In this document: positions 54,135-59,693 of the stretch, one piece after another
Position numbering within the stretch: the first letter of the stretch is position 1
Layout: the number at the start of each line of letters is the position of its first letter
Virus record (IMG/VR): IMGVR_UViG_3300028127_000003
Direction: 5' to 3' (one strand)
Origin: a virus
Length of the DNA: 64,000 nt
The notes under the pieces: model-generated
What the model saw: the letters and a program-made list of their open reading frames with translations, nothing else
Databases searched by the model: none
Told to the model about the DNA's origin: nothing
Made by a program: the position numbers and the translations under genes

Positions 54135-57100
54135 TTAAGACTCTAAAGTTTTAATTCTTGCTTCAAGTTCTCTAATAGCTTCGATTAAAAGACCGACCAT
54201 TTTTTCATAGTCAACAGTTTTGTAAACTGTTCCGTCTTCTGCACCATCCATTAGTGGCATTTCATGTTCTCTTACTAACATAGGTAATACCTCTTCTACT
54301 TCTTGGGCGATAAGACCTAGATCATGAAGACCTTTTCTGCTACCGCTATTCCAATCGTATTCAACACCTCTTAACTGTAAGACTTTAGATAATGCTTCTT
54401 CAATAGTAGTCACGTTATCTTTAAGTCTCGCATCCGAGATAGAAGTTGAGTATGCAACAACATCACCGTCAACGTGAAGGTTACCGTTACTGTATAATCT
54501 CATTTCTTCTGAGTTGTTAATGTAGAATTGTTGTAATGCACTACTGTTATTGTAGTACACATATTCACCACCTGAGTTACCAACATACTGATTAGAATAT
54601 AATCTGTAGTTAGACGTGTTAGGACCTACGGCACCTTGGTTACCCGTGTTACCTTTAGGACCAGTTGCACCAGTATAACCTTGAGCACCATTAGATCCAT
54701 TAGATCCATTTGCACCAGTTAAACCTCTGTCACCTTTAGGACCCGTAGGACCAGTGTAACCTTGAGGACCTGTATTACCAGTTGTACCTTTAGGACCAGT
54801 TGAACCTTTAAGACCTTGGAAACCTTGATAACCTCTAGCACCAGTTGAACCAACAGTACCTTTAGGACCTGTAGGACCAGTGTAACCTTGAGGACCTCTA
54901 GCACCTGTGTCACCTTTAGTACCCTTAGCACCAGTTCCACCAGTTGGACCAACAGAACCTTGAGCACCAGTTGAACCAGTGTTACCTTTAGGACCTGTAG
55001 GACCAGTTGAACCAACATTACCTTTAGAACCAATAACACCTTGAGCACCTGTAGGACCAGTTGAACCAACGTTACCTTTAGCACCTAGAGCACCTTGAGC
55101 ACCTGTATTACCAGTGTTACCTTTAGGACCAGTTGAACCAACGTTACCTTTAACACCAATTATACCTTGGAAACCTCTAGCACCACCAGCACCAGTAGAA
55201 CCTTTAGGACCAACTGAACCAGTTGCACCTGTAAGACCTTGAGGACCAGTAGCACCTCTAGCGCCAGTTGCACCTTGAGCACCAGTATTACCTTTAACAC
55301 CGATATCACCTTTAGTACCTTTAGCACCCGTTCCACCAGTTAAACCTTGGAAACCTTGATAACCTCTAGCACCTGTGTTACCAACGCTACCTTTAGGACC
55401 AACAGGACCAACAGAACCTTGATTACCAGTATTACCAGTATTACCTTTAGCACCTAGAGCACCTTGAGCACCAGTTGAACCAGTGTTACCTTTAGCACCT
55501 AGAGCACCTTGGGCACCAGTTGAACCTGTATTACCTTTAGGACCAACAGCACCAACAGCACCTCTTGCACCACCAGTACCTTGAGCACCTGTGTTACCAG
55601 TATTACCTTTAGCACCAACGTTACCTTTAACACCAATTACACCTTGGAAACCAGTTGGACCAGTATTACCAGTATTACCTTTAAGTCCAATATCACCTTT
55701 AGCACCTGTAGCACCAGTTATACCTTGAATACCAATTAGACCTCTGTCACCTTTAGCACCAGTTCCACCAGTTGCACCAGTTGAACCTTGGAAACCTTGA
55801 GCACCAGTGTTACCTGTGTTACCTTTAAGTCCAATATCACCTTTAGTACCTTTAGCACCTACAGCACCTTGAATACCTTGAATACCTCTGTCACCTTTAG
55901 CACCAGTTATACCTTGGAAACCTTGATTACCTTTAGCACCAACATCACCTTTAGTACCCTTAGCACCTACAGCACCTTGAATACCTTGGAAACCTTGATT
56001 ACCTTTAGCACCAACATCACCTTTAGTACCTTTAGCACCAGTAAAACCTTGGAAACCTTGAGCACCTGTAGCACCTCTGTCACCTTTAGTACCTTTAGCA
56101 CCTGTAGCACCAGTTATACCTTGGAAACCTTGGAAACCTTGATCACCTTTAGCACCTGTATTACCTTTAGTACCTGTTATACCTTGGAAACCTTGATCAC
56201 CTTTAGCACCAACATTACCTTTAGTACCTTTAGCACCAACGGTACCTTGAATACCTTGGAAACCTTGATCACCTTTAGCACCAACATTACCTTTAGTACC
56301 AGTTATACCTTGGAAACCTTGAGCACCTGTAGCACCTCTATCACCTTTAGTACCTTTGATACCAATAACACCATTTGCACCTTGGAAACCTTGATCACCT
56401 TTAGTACCAACATTACCTTTAGCACCAGTTATACCTTGGAAACCTTGATCACCTTTAGCACCTGTGTTACCAACGATACCTTGAATACCTCTGTCACCTT
56501 TAGCACCTTGAGCACCAGTGTTACCTTGATCACCTTTAGTACCAATGTTACCTTTAGCACCAGTTATACCTTGGAAACCTTGATCACCTTTAGCACCTGT
56601 GTTACCTTGTTTACCTTGTACACCAATAACACCTTGTTCACCAGTATCACCTTTAGCACCTTGAGCACCTGTGTTACCAACAACACCTTTAGCACCAGTT
56701 ATACCTTGGAAACCTTGATCACCTTTAGCACCTTTACCACCATCAGCTCCAGCAGCTCCAGTATTTCCTTGGAAACCTCTATCGCCTTTGTCGCCTTTGT
56801 CGCCTTTTAAACCAGTTTGACCTTGGAAACCTTGATCACCTTTAAGACCTTGCTCACCTCTGTCTCCATTGGCACCAGTTTTACCTTGAACACCTTGAAT
56901 ACCTTGTTCACCAGTATCACCTTTAAGACCTTGGTAACCTAAATCACCTTTATCACCTGTTCTTGCGAACGTTACTATTAATTCTTCATTTGCTGAGAAT
57001 ACATTAGCTGCAGAAGCATATAATGTGTTACCAACTACTTGGAAATATGTATTAACCTCTTGTAAAGAAGAGATTGTAAATAACATATATTGAGAAGAAT

Positions 57101-59693
57101 CTAATTTATTAGAAATTCTAATATGACCTTTAATTGTAGATGTAGAATCGTCAATAGTTCTTAAGTATTGCTGAACGTCATTGTTAGTTGCATTTAAATC
57201 ATCAATGTTGATTTGTGTTGCACTTCCAGCAGCGTCAGTGTTAAGACTAATATATCCTGCACCCGGATCGCCTGCGGTACCAGAATTAAATTTATAGTAG
57301 AATGTTGCTCCACCAAAATTACCTTCAGGACCTTGGAAACCTTGATCACCTTTGTCACCTTTGATACCTCTATCACCTTTGTCACCTTTGAAACCTTGAT
57401 CTCCTTGGTCACCTTTAGCTCCAGTGTTTCCTTGGAAACCTCTTTCACCTGTATCACCTTTTAAACCAACATCTCCTTGATCACCTTTAGCTCCAGTATC
57501 TCCTTGGGCACCGACTTTACCATCAATACCTTGGAAACCTCTATCACCTTGATCACCTTTAAGACCTCTTTCTCCTTTGTCACCTTGGTCACCTTTGACA
57601 CCAACGATACCTTGGAAACCTCTGTCACCTTTATCACCTTTAAGACCTCTGTCACCTTTAAGACCAGTATCTCCTTGGTCACCTTTAAGACCTGTTTCAC
57701 CAGTATCTCCTTGATCACCTTTAGCACCTGTATCTCCTTGGTCACCTTTAGTTCCAGTTATACCTTGGAAACCTTGATCACCTTTATCGCCTTTAAGACC
57801 TATATCACCTTTAAGACCAGTTTCACCAGTATCTCCTTGATCACCTTTAGCTCCAGTATCTCCTTGGTCACCTTTAGTTCCAGTGTTTCCTTGGAAACCT
57901 TGAATACCTCTGTCACCTTTAAGACCTGTTTCACCTTGTTCACCAGTGTCACCTTGATCACCTTTAAGACCTTGATCACCAGTTACACCTTGATCACCAG
58001 TTATACCTTGGAAACCTTGATCACCTTTAGTACCAACTTTACCGTCAATACCTTGATCACCTTTGTCACCTTTAAGACCAGTTTCACCATTAGCACCAGT
58101 ATCTCCTTGATCACCTTTTAAACCGGTGTCACCTTGATCTCCTTTAAGACCAGTGTTTCCTTGGAAACCTTGAAGACCTCTGTCACCTTTAAGACCAGTT
58201 TCACCTTGTTCACCAGTTTCACCAGTTTCACCTTGAATACCTTGATCACCAGTTGTACCTTGATTACCAGTTATACCTTGGAAACCTTGATCACCTTTGA
58301 CTCCGATACCATCGACACCTTGGAAACCTTGATCACCTTTGTCACCTTTAAGACCTGTTTCACCAATATCTCCTTGATCACCTTTAGCACCAGTATCTCC
58401 TTGATCACCTTTAATACCCGTATCTCCTTGGTCACCTTTAGCACCTTGTATACCATCATCACCAATAGAACCCTGAACACCAGTTTCACCTTGAGCTCCA
58501 ATAACACCTTGGTCACCAGTTATACCTTGGAAACCTTGAATACCTTGATCACCTTTAGCACCAACGTCTCCTTGGTCACCTTTAAGACCTGTTTCACCAG
58601 TATCTCCTTGATCACCTTTAAGACCTGTATCTCCTTGATCACCTTTAGCACCAACTTTACCGTCAATACCTTGGAAACCTTGATCACCTTTAGCACCAGT
58701 TTCACCAGTTATACCTTGGAAACCTTGATCACCTTTAGCTCCAGTATCTCCTTGGTCACCTTTAAGACCTGTTTCACCAGTATCTCCTTGATCACCTTTA
58801 AGACCTGTTTCACCACGATCACCGACTTTACCGTCAATACCTTGGAAACCTTGATCACCTTTAAGACCTTGTTCACCGTCAGCACCAACAGCACCTTGAG
58901 CACCAATAGCACCTTGAGCACCAGTTTCACCGATTATACCTTGGAAACCTTGATCACCTTTTTCACCAGTTTCACCTTGTTTACCATCAGCACCAATATC
59001 TCCTTGGTCACCTTTAAGACCTGTTTCACCAGTATCTCCTTGGTCACCTTTAAGACCTGTTTCACCAGTATCTCCTTGATCACCTTTTTCACCAGTTATA
59101 CCTTGGAAACCTTGATCACCTTTTTCACCAGTGTCACCTTTTAAACCAGTTTCACCTCTTAGACCTGTTTCACCAGTATCACCTTTTAAACCAGTGTCAC
59201 CTTGATCACCTTTTAAACCGGTGTCACCTTGATCTCCTTTAAGACCAGTTTCACCTTGAATACCTTGGAAACCTTGAGCACCTACTTTACCTTCAATACC
59301 TTGTTCTCCTGTATCACCTTGATCACCTTTAAGACCTGTTTCACCAGTATCTCCTTGGTCACCTTTAAGACCTGTTTCACCAGTATCTCCTTGGTCTCCT
59401 TTAAGACCTTGATCACCTGTTTTACCTTGAATACCTTGTTCACCTCTATCTCCAGTTGCGCCTGTATCGCCTTGATCTCCTTTAAGACCAATGCCACCTT
59501 CAACACCTTGAGCACCAGTTAAACCTATATCACCTTGTAAACCTTGATCACCTGTTATACCTCTATCGCCAGTTTCACCGTTGTCTCCTTGAAAACCTTG
59601 AACTCCAGTTGCACCTTGTGCACCTTCATTGCCAGCTCCTTGAGAACCTTGATAACCTTGACTACCAGAAGTACTAATAAATGGATTTGCCAT
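54135..59693 (-). CDS. Giant collagen-like fibre with central globular insert and C-terminal S74 intramolecular chaperone
   Basis: About 520 G-X-Y triplets in two blocks, insert at ~56958..57320, C-terminal [11 protein letters not shown]...[13 protein letters not shown]...[17 protein letters not shown]. Confidence 0.92.

Follow-up and report, generated by a model that had tools for sequence, protein, structure and literature searches.

Collagen-like bacteriophage tail fibers with a C-terminal Peptidase_S74 chaperone, such as PHROG 5668-type fibers and the collagen-like proteins of Escherichia coli O157 prophages (PMC3368898), combine Gly-X-Y collagen repeats and small trimeric domains with this chaperone, which carries a Ser/Lys dyad. 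Here, we describe a collagen-like fiber gene in a 64,000-nucleotide stretch of DNA, hereafter called the window, which is part of a 133-kb IMG/VR virus record (IMGVR_UViG_3300028127_000003; CheckV completeness 44%). The encoded fiber shares the repeats, a small intervening domain, and the chaperone with these phage S74 fibers but differs from them in having two ~260-triplet arms that are opposite in charge and equal in length across alleles, in having a minimal N-terminal anchor and no large receptor-binding domain at its distal end, and in being encoded ~30 kb from the baseplate and tail-fiber module.

Other fibers and collagens are alike in part. T4-type long tail fibers are kneed and can be stowed, and T7 fibers fold against the capsid, providing precedents for a mid-point joint and for stowed and deployed states. 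Those fibers, however, are beta-structured, the T4 fiber is assembled from several proteins, and both stow against the virion rather than against themselves; to our knowledge, neither has charge-complementary, length-matched halves. Triple helices associate by complementary charge in the antiparallel dimers of type VII collagen and in synthetic Lys/Asp block peptides, but these contacts are intermolecular, whereas here both potential partners belong to one polypeptide with a globular domain between them. As for mimivirus L230 and animal LH3 (PLOD3), the likeness is that of a viral collagen adjoining a PLOD-type homologue and glycosyltransferases, and 119 Y-position lysines of the present fiber occupy the canonical X-Lys-Gly substrate position. 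By contrast with L230 and LH3, the homologue is a stand-alone 205-residue domain encoded by a bacteriophage, the fiber design does not depend on it, and the modification itself is a prediction. Collagen-like fiber, S74 chaperone, and PLOD-like enzyme are each of a known kind; what is new is the constraint that links both arms. We found no description of length-matched, oppositely charged collagen arms in a phage fiber in the open-access literature.

Results

Architecture of the fiber

A single open reading frame (ORF) on the minus strand, which carries nearly all genes of the record, makes up the whole fiber gene and encodes 1852 residues plus a stop codon. Its parts are as follows.

54135..59693, minus strand: whole fiber gene; Pfam Collagen (E 2e-235) and Peptidase_S74 (E 9e-16)
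59667..59693, minus strand: N-terminal peptide MANPFISTS, residues 1-9; the sole non-collagen N-terminal sequence
57306..59666, minus strand: arm 1, acidic collagen, residues 10-796 (787 residues); by Gly-X-Y scan and composition
56958..57305, minus strand: central all-beta domain, residues 797-912 (116 residues); member of a large unnamed phage domain family
54618..56957, minus strand: arm 2, basic collagen, residues 913-1692 (780 residues); by Gly-X-Y scan and composition
54438..54617, minus strand: Tyr/Asn-rich tip stalk, residues 1693-1752 (60 residues); likeness to the S16 fiber tip (6f45) and a PHROG match
54138..54437, minus strand: Peptidase_S74 intramolecular chaperone, residues 1753-1852; Pfam PF13884, E 9e-16

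The fiber contains 521 Gly-X-Y triplets, and its collagen periodicity is recognized by the corresponding Pfam family (PF01391) at the E value listed. Arm 1 accounts for 261 triplets (4+147+110, in runs at residues 10-21, 24-464, and 467-796), with two 2-residue interruptions after residues 21 and 464; a direct scan of arm 2 (residues 913-1692) found 260 triplets and no interruption. An earlier note on this DNA had proposed parts of 782, 121, and 779 residues, which is correct as an architecture but places the border between arm 1 and the insert five residues away from its present position (787, 116, and 780 residues). At 0.286 nm per residue, the computed length is 225 nm for arm 1 and 223 nm for arm 2, and the extended rod would be about 450 nm in length. 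From the sequence and the S74 trimerization domain, we expect the fiber to be a trimeric triple helix, in which the central domain is the sole sizeable globular domain of the mature protein.

Arm lengths co-vary among orthologues

To collect orthologues, we used the C-terminal module and the central domain as queries against IMG/VR and Joint Genome Institute (JGI) metagenomes. At least 13 other contigs carry this gene, with its neighbors in unchanged order. Full-length copies all have an N-terminus of 9, an insert of 116, and a C-terminus of 160 residues, and variation in length is confined to the arms. The distinct full-length alleles have the following arm 1/arm 2 lengths.

787/780 residues: window and L015/L024/L085, from independent samples
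785/777 residues: L018
785/777 residues: L088, with arms only 84% and 72% identical to those of L018
755/750 residues: L016 and L017/L019, from independent samples
854/843 residues: L021/L023, from independent samples
875/866 residues: L089

The earlier note had set out in advance that arm lengths should co-vary in homologues, and among these close orthologues they do. First, the lengths of arm 1 and arm 2 correlate with r = 0.9997 over the six distinct full-length alleles; arm 1 exceeds arm 2 by 7.5 ± 2.0 residues, with a standard deviation (SD) of arm length of ~43 residues. Second, as good a match arose in only 2 of 720 permutations of arm 2 among alleles. Third, the shifts relative to the window type (arm 1/arm 2) are -32/-30, +67/+63, and +88/+86 residues, and the rough chance of at least three independent shifts being equal in both arms is about 1e-4. 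The length differences consist of many small insertions and deletions (indels) scattered through each arm, which add up to equal totals. Thus, this lineage holds its arms equal to about 1-3 nm over 215-250 nm, with opposite net charges, and both the sequence and the absolute length of the arms evolve quickly. Between most alleles, the arms are 53-73% identical and the globular parts 79-98% identical. The co-variation of lengths despite such hypervariable arm sequences supports selection on length, as the note had suggested, but its phrase of a length match despite DNA-level tandem expansion overstates how recent any expansion is: the tandem DNA repeats of the arms are old and degenerate, with 57-86% matches.

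Could the match reflect coincidence, shared ancestry, or faulty assembly, with no selection on equality? The alleles all belong to a single phage group, assembly of repetitive genes is difficult, and one contig (L014) ends inside the gene. However, for each of three alleles, identical copies came from two or three different samples, which makes an assembly artifact less likely, and neither the paired shifts described above nor the divergence of the arms to 53-73% identity through many indels is expected from chance or common descent. We regard this explanation as largely refuted and as the least credible of those considered here. The truncated L014 copy itself agrees with matched arms as far as it can be read: arm 2 lacks 87 residues and arm 1 lacks at least 32 residues in the visible 55%.

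The L086 allele bears on what is being matched. Its arm 2 has 777 residues and its arm 1 has 823, of which the collagen part is ~761 residues; the remainder includes two tandem non-collagen modules of ~31 residues each (GNGIASARIDDEGNLIITYTNGG...) at fiber residues ~236-300. The collagen of this arm 1 is ~24 residues below the usual offset between arm 1 and arm 2. The modules look as if they were offset by fewer triplets, which fits a matching of physical length rather than of residue count.

We also looked for an external ruler among 40-50 ORFs of at least 150 residues, comparing the record of the window (G000) with the related contigs G001 (arms 755/750) and G002 (arms 854/843), and no length tracked the arms, although genes for sheath, tube, and tape-measure proteins were not among the identified ones. 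Most other proteins are equal in length to those of the window genome, with identities that are typically 80-100% for G001 and 45-95% for G002. As no ORF length follows the arms, absolute arm length seems to be free and equality constrained, and the arms appear to be matched to each other rather than to an outside ruler. An origin by tandem duplication of an arm plus a domain was rejected because the insert and C-terminus share no similarity. Selection on equality is the remaining explanation, no recombination scheme being apparent that would equalize the lengths.

Additional searches did not extend the set. The C-terminal region had no match of more than 67% identity in the protein database, a further IMG/VR scan with the protein encoded upstream of the fiber returned only contigs already found, and no DNA match to the flank of the gene was present in the phage GenBank collection. 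L058-L060 and L056 were rejected as a second collagen lineage, as they encode Gly-Thr/Ser-Ser low-complexity proteins with constant interruptions that are not comparable two-armed collagens. The L058-L060 proteins (IMG/VR contigs 3300025655_000204 and relatives) exceed 2816 residues without the 5′ end having been reached, contain Gly-Thr/Ser-Ser-rich pseudo-collagen repeats with regular AQS/ATS/RTS breaks, and end in a related tip and S74 module.

The arms are opposite in charge and mirrored in charge profile

Arm 1 contains 106 Asp, 37 Glu, 64 Lys, and 12 Arg residues, for a net charge of -67 per chain, and arm 2 contains 30 Asp, 3 Glu, 65 Lys, and 14 Arg residues, for a net charge of +46. 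Lys and Arg are equally frequent in the two arms. The polarity arises because Asp and Glu at position X have been lost from arm 2 (131 in arm 1, 32 in arm 2), where Ala, Asn, Pro, Ser, and Thr take their place. A strong asymmetry of charge, which the earlier note had read from the window, is present in every orthologue as well: arm 1 ranges from -53 to -77 and arm 2 from +20 to +49 across all alleles. Position Y holds 119 of the 129 Lys residues of the arms and 137 Thr residues per chain. Pro occurs once in arm 1 and 20 times in arm 2, always at position X in the latter and always after residue ~1320, in the last third. The motif KGD has 56 occurrences in arm 1 and 27 in arm 2, and KG[DE] pairs, which would stabilize a Pro-poor triple helix, number 84 (57 in arm 1, 27 in arm 2). 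In the L016 fiber, around residue 1330 of arm 2, Asp replaces a triplet Gly (GAK-DDT-GAR) that is Gly in two sister assemblies; the Asp is due either to natural replacement of the glycine or to an error in sequencing.

Charge is close to zero beside the central domain in both arms and greatest at their far ends. For seven of nine distinct allele sequences, r lies between -0.46 and -0.59 when the charge profiles of the arms are compared in antiparallel orientation; in parallel orientation, r is about 0. A simple one-to-one neutralization of the arms was rejected, as their charges sum to a negative value in every allele (-16 to -45 per chain).

Opposite charge on equal blocks might also be used without folding. 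In a staggered parallel co-assembly, the acidic and basic arms of different chains would share one triple helix at a half-molecule offset and thereby form long polymers, with arm 1 giving X-position Asp/Glu and arm 2 unpaired Y-position Lys. Synthetic sticky-ended collagen peptides are designed with Lys and Asp blocks that are equal in size and opposite in charge, which would fit such an arrangement. Nevertheless, the S74 and central domains imply three chains in register, a half-molecule offset would set globular domains against chain ends, and the charge profiles correlate in the antiparallel rather than the parallel sense. We therefore consider staggered co-assembly very unlikely.

The central domain is a widespread in-line module

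In an exhaustive HMMER search, 2322 representative proteins matched the central domain at E<=1e-3. The family is found only in viruses, with one to seven copies per protein, nearly always between collagen repeats, and some of its members end in S74 domains as does the present fiber. Relatives are 30-57% identical in the domain, and their collagen segments, of anywhere from 5 to 144 triplets, are not symmetrical. No arm symmetry was seen in the ~190 proteins sharing the domain that we examined, and a switch from acidic to basic collagen occurs in only a few relatives (P0101, P0163), whose arms are unequal (60 versus 118 and 54 versus 87 triplets). It follows that arm matching is specific to this lineage and that the domain is no dedicated hinge. 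With respect to the expected co-variation of arm lengths, the expectation holds for close orthologues but not for the wider domain family, in which lengths would count as uncorrelated, an outcome that the note had named as counting against its proposal.

An AF2 model of the central domain is all-beta, with a predicted local-distance difference test (pLDDT) score of 88.6. A Pfam scan of the whole protein left the domain unmatched, and sequence searches gave nothing in the PDB at E<=10 and one weak PHROG match (E 0.0028). Foldseek returned nothing for the model at E<=1e-3, the best VIA-align Z score for the fold was 6.3, which lies inside the background range, and in the Atlas only unnamed Uroviricota clusters were matched. 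The domain thus defines a very large unnamed family that has neither a Pfam model nor a solved relative.

These observations bear on the idea that the fiber is always extended and its arms never touch. An acidic proximal half would repel the virion and neighboring fibers, a basic distal half would be first to touch an anionic host surface, and some other demand of mechanics or assembly would hold the central domain exactly halfway along the fiber, for example as the attachment point of a two-armed whisker. The conserved charge polarity would serve such a fiber, the central domain is in-line in other fibers, and an N-terminal anchor of only 9 residues makes central attachment conceivable. This idea leaves unexplained, however, why the arms match (SD ~2 residues) while their length drifts by 120 residues between near-identical phages, and why L086 should offset its non-collagen modules by fewer triplets in the same arm. 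On balance, a permanently extended fiber is unlikely.

The tip and S74 chaperone

The C-terminus was taken to be an S74 chaperone in the earlier note, and both profile and motif bear this out. Residues 1753-1807 match the Peptidase_S74 profile with 58.4 bits (cut-off 22), and the motif S1753-D-A-R1756-L-K1758, in which Ser and Lys are five residues apart with Arg between them, is invariant in five orthologues. The spacing of the Ser/Lys dyad of S74 chaperones has been described (PMC3742443). Sequence matches of the C-terminus in the PDB were 6f45 and 7dc3 (MYRF), the tip resembling that of the S16 long tail fiber (6f45). The C-terminus also matched PHROG 5668 tail fiber (E 2.4e-35) and about 40 further tail-fiber PHROGs. 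The tip stalk would remain on the fiber after the predicted release of the chaperone.

The C-terminal 160 residues (54138-54617) are 60-67% identical to the C-termini of many non-collagen fibers of 1000-2200 residues on other contigs. Tip and S74 domain together look like an exchangeable folding cassette.

Genomic neighborhood and possible modification of the arms

The conserved gene order is DUF2827, GT2, a 258-residue protein, the fiber, DUF6445, a 624-residue GT2, in some loci a lysyl hydroxylase, and ATP-grasp. The neighbors in the window are as follows.

61393..62652, minus strand: DUF2827 protein; conserved synteny
60610..61380, minus strand: GT2 glycosyltransferase, upstream; conserved synteny
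59714..60490, minus strand: 258-residue upstream neighbor; 82-100% identical in all orthologous loci
53054..53986, minus strand: DUF6445 protein, downstream; synteny
51165..53039, minus strand: 624-residue GT2 glycosyltransferase, downstream; synteny
50548..51165, minus strand: 205-residue lysyl-hydroxylase homologue, downstream; LH3 (6fxk, E 2e-25) and mimivirus L230 (6ax6, E 1.5e-18)

The 258-residue upstream protein had no Pfam, PHROG, or PDB match, and its structure gave weak Atlas leads to Collar and cement clusters. Its N-terminus (IKIKQIDGLQAALD) resembles motifs that start phage fiber proteins, and the protein may be an adaptor or adhesin for the fiber.

Given this context, the neighboring enzymes may modify the arms by hydroxylation of Y-position Lys, by glycosylation of hydroxylysine or Thr, or by both. 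Besides the window, seven loci on five other contigs have the hydroxylase homologue. It is missing at the locus in L016/L017/L019 and L021/L023, and no copy was found elsewhere on the G001 and G002 contigs; in L016/L017/L019, the ATP-grasp gene follows the GT2 gene after ~20 nucleotides with no hydroxylase between them. Where the hydroxylase gene is absent, the number of Y-position Lys residues in the fiber is undiminished. Loci without the hydroxylase keep matched arms, and hydroxylation is therefore no part of what enforces the matching. Farther upstream, at 4550-9302 of L108 (118049-122801 of G000), lie genes for a ClpP protease, a glycosyltransferase of the GT25 family (the family of collagen galactosyltransferases), a thymidylate synthase, and a ClpB/ClpC-like double AAA+ ATPase with a UVR motif.

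Baseplate and tail-fiber genes occupy 2..31600 of the window, and the fiber gene, at 54-60 kb, stands outside this module among genes for modification and DNA metabolism. In place of an N-terminal attachment domain, only 9 residues precede the collagen. Given this placement and this N-terminus, the fiber may be attached to the head or neck just as well as to the tail. Beside the baseplate genes are two large tail-fiber proteins, encoded at 2757-6251 and at 2-2704 (the latter ORF runs past the start of the window), and each has a collagen-like stretch of ~12-15 triplets near its N-terminus. G002 encodes much more divergent versions of both (30-44% identity).

Discussion

The best explanation of the whole, which we prefer but would stop just short of calling probable, is that this gene encodes a homotrimeric collagen-like fiber of a large myovirus-type phage whose arms are in mutual contact through an antiparallel fold-back. 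By analogy with its family, the S74 chaperone would register three chains and then cleave itself at the S1753 motif, and the triple helix would zip from the C-terminus to the N-terminus, starting in arm 2 and passing the central beta domain to reach arm 1. The fiber would bend at or beside the central domain so that the arms touch, with the acidic N-terminal arm lying antiparallel along the basic C-terminal arm in a six-chain rod of ~225 nm. This rod would have the central domain at its far end and, at its near end, the N-terminus beside the C-terminal tip. Folded in this way, the fiber would be stowed or stiffened, and opening would double its reach. Side-by-side rods joined at one end need to be equal in length only if their other ends must also meet; if the ends must meet, then selection acts on the difference between the arms and not on length itself.

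Antiparallel fold-back is, we infer, the simplest reading, and the one feature that directly supports it is the mirror-image charge gradient of the arms. The earlier note had proposed a retractable fiber that folds at a hinge. Mirrored gradients and a variation in length that no other protein follows are in keeping with that proposal, but the central domain is a common in-line module and the charges do not cancel, which are not. In a more specific form, the fiber would be a self-complementary hairpin in which acidic and basic helices of ~225 nm zip together, leaving the central domain as an exposed adhesin, until salt, pH, or host contact unzips them into a 0.45-micrometer line; we consider this form doubtful.

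Several observations weigh against a fold-back. First, collagen adjoins the central domain directly on either side, with no obvious flexible linker. To judge from its relatives, this domain would act as an in-line node rather than a dedicated hinge, and a three-fold-symmetric node cannot itself make a U-turn. Second, the mirror correlation of charge is weak in two of the nine allele sequences (-0.05 in L018, -0.15 in L089), and the negative sums noted above leave the arms unbalanced. Third, there is no clear mirror or parallel pattern of indels between the arms, gap positions moving with alignment parameters. Fourth, all alleles belong to one closely related phage group and provide ~3-4 independent contrasts. 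Fifth, heavy glycosylation, if present, could hinder close packing, and attraction over long distances would be screened by salt in the case of a marine source. Finally, the bend and the contact between arms are predictions from sequence.

The U-turn would not be required if the pairing were intermolecular. Two antiparallel trimers, with acidic arm on basic arm and central domains in register, would form a flush-ended dimer, bundle, or network, linking fibers of different virions, for example, or serving as a free scaffold. Such pairing predicts the same equal lengths, charge complementarity, and mirror register as a hairpin does. On any one virion, however, fibers attached by the same end all point the same way, so the partners would have to be on other particles or be free protein, and it is not obvious why a lateral dimer should need flush ends. 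We judge intermolecular pairing to be improbable, to about the same degree as a permanently extended fiber, and fold-back within one molecule remains the account that we favor.

Collagen-like phage fibers are common and have been treated as passive spacers of arbitrary length. Here, length is arbitrary but the equality of the oppositely charged halves is held to about 1% across fast-evolving alleles, a pattern that suggests a comparative signature of two triple helices interacting, either within one molecule or between two. Length co-variation of repeat arms can expose contacts where residue co-variation cannot. If true, the hairpin would be the first case in nature of collagen helices that pair within one molecule. 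If confirmed, the pattern would provide a natural design rule for self-pairing collagens that are poor in Pro and free of hydroxyproline, which would be useful for recombinant collagen materials, together with a simple model system in which one gene brings its own folding chaperone, and it would represent a new stow-and-deploy mechanism for virus fibers.

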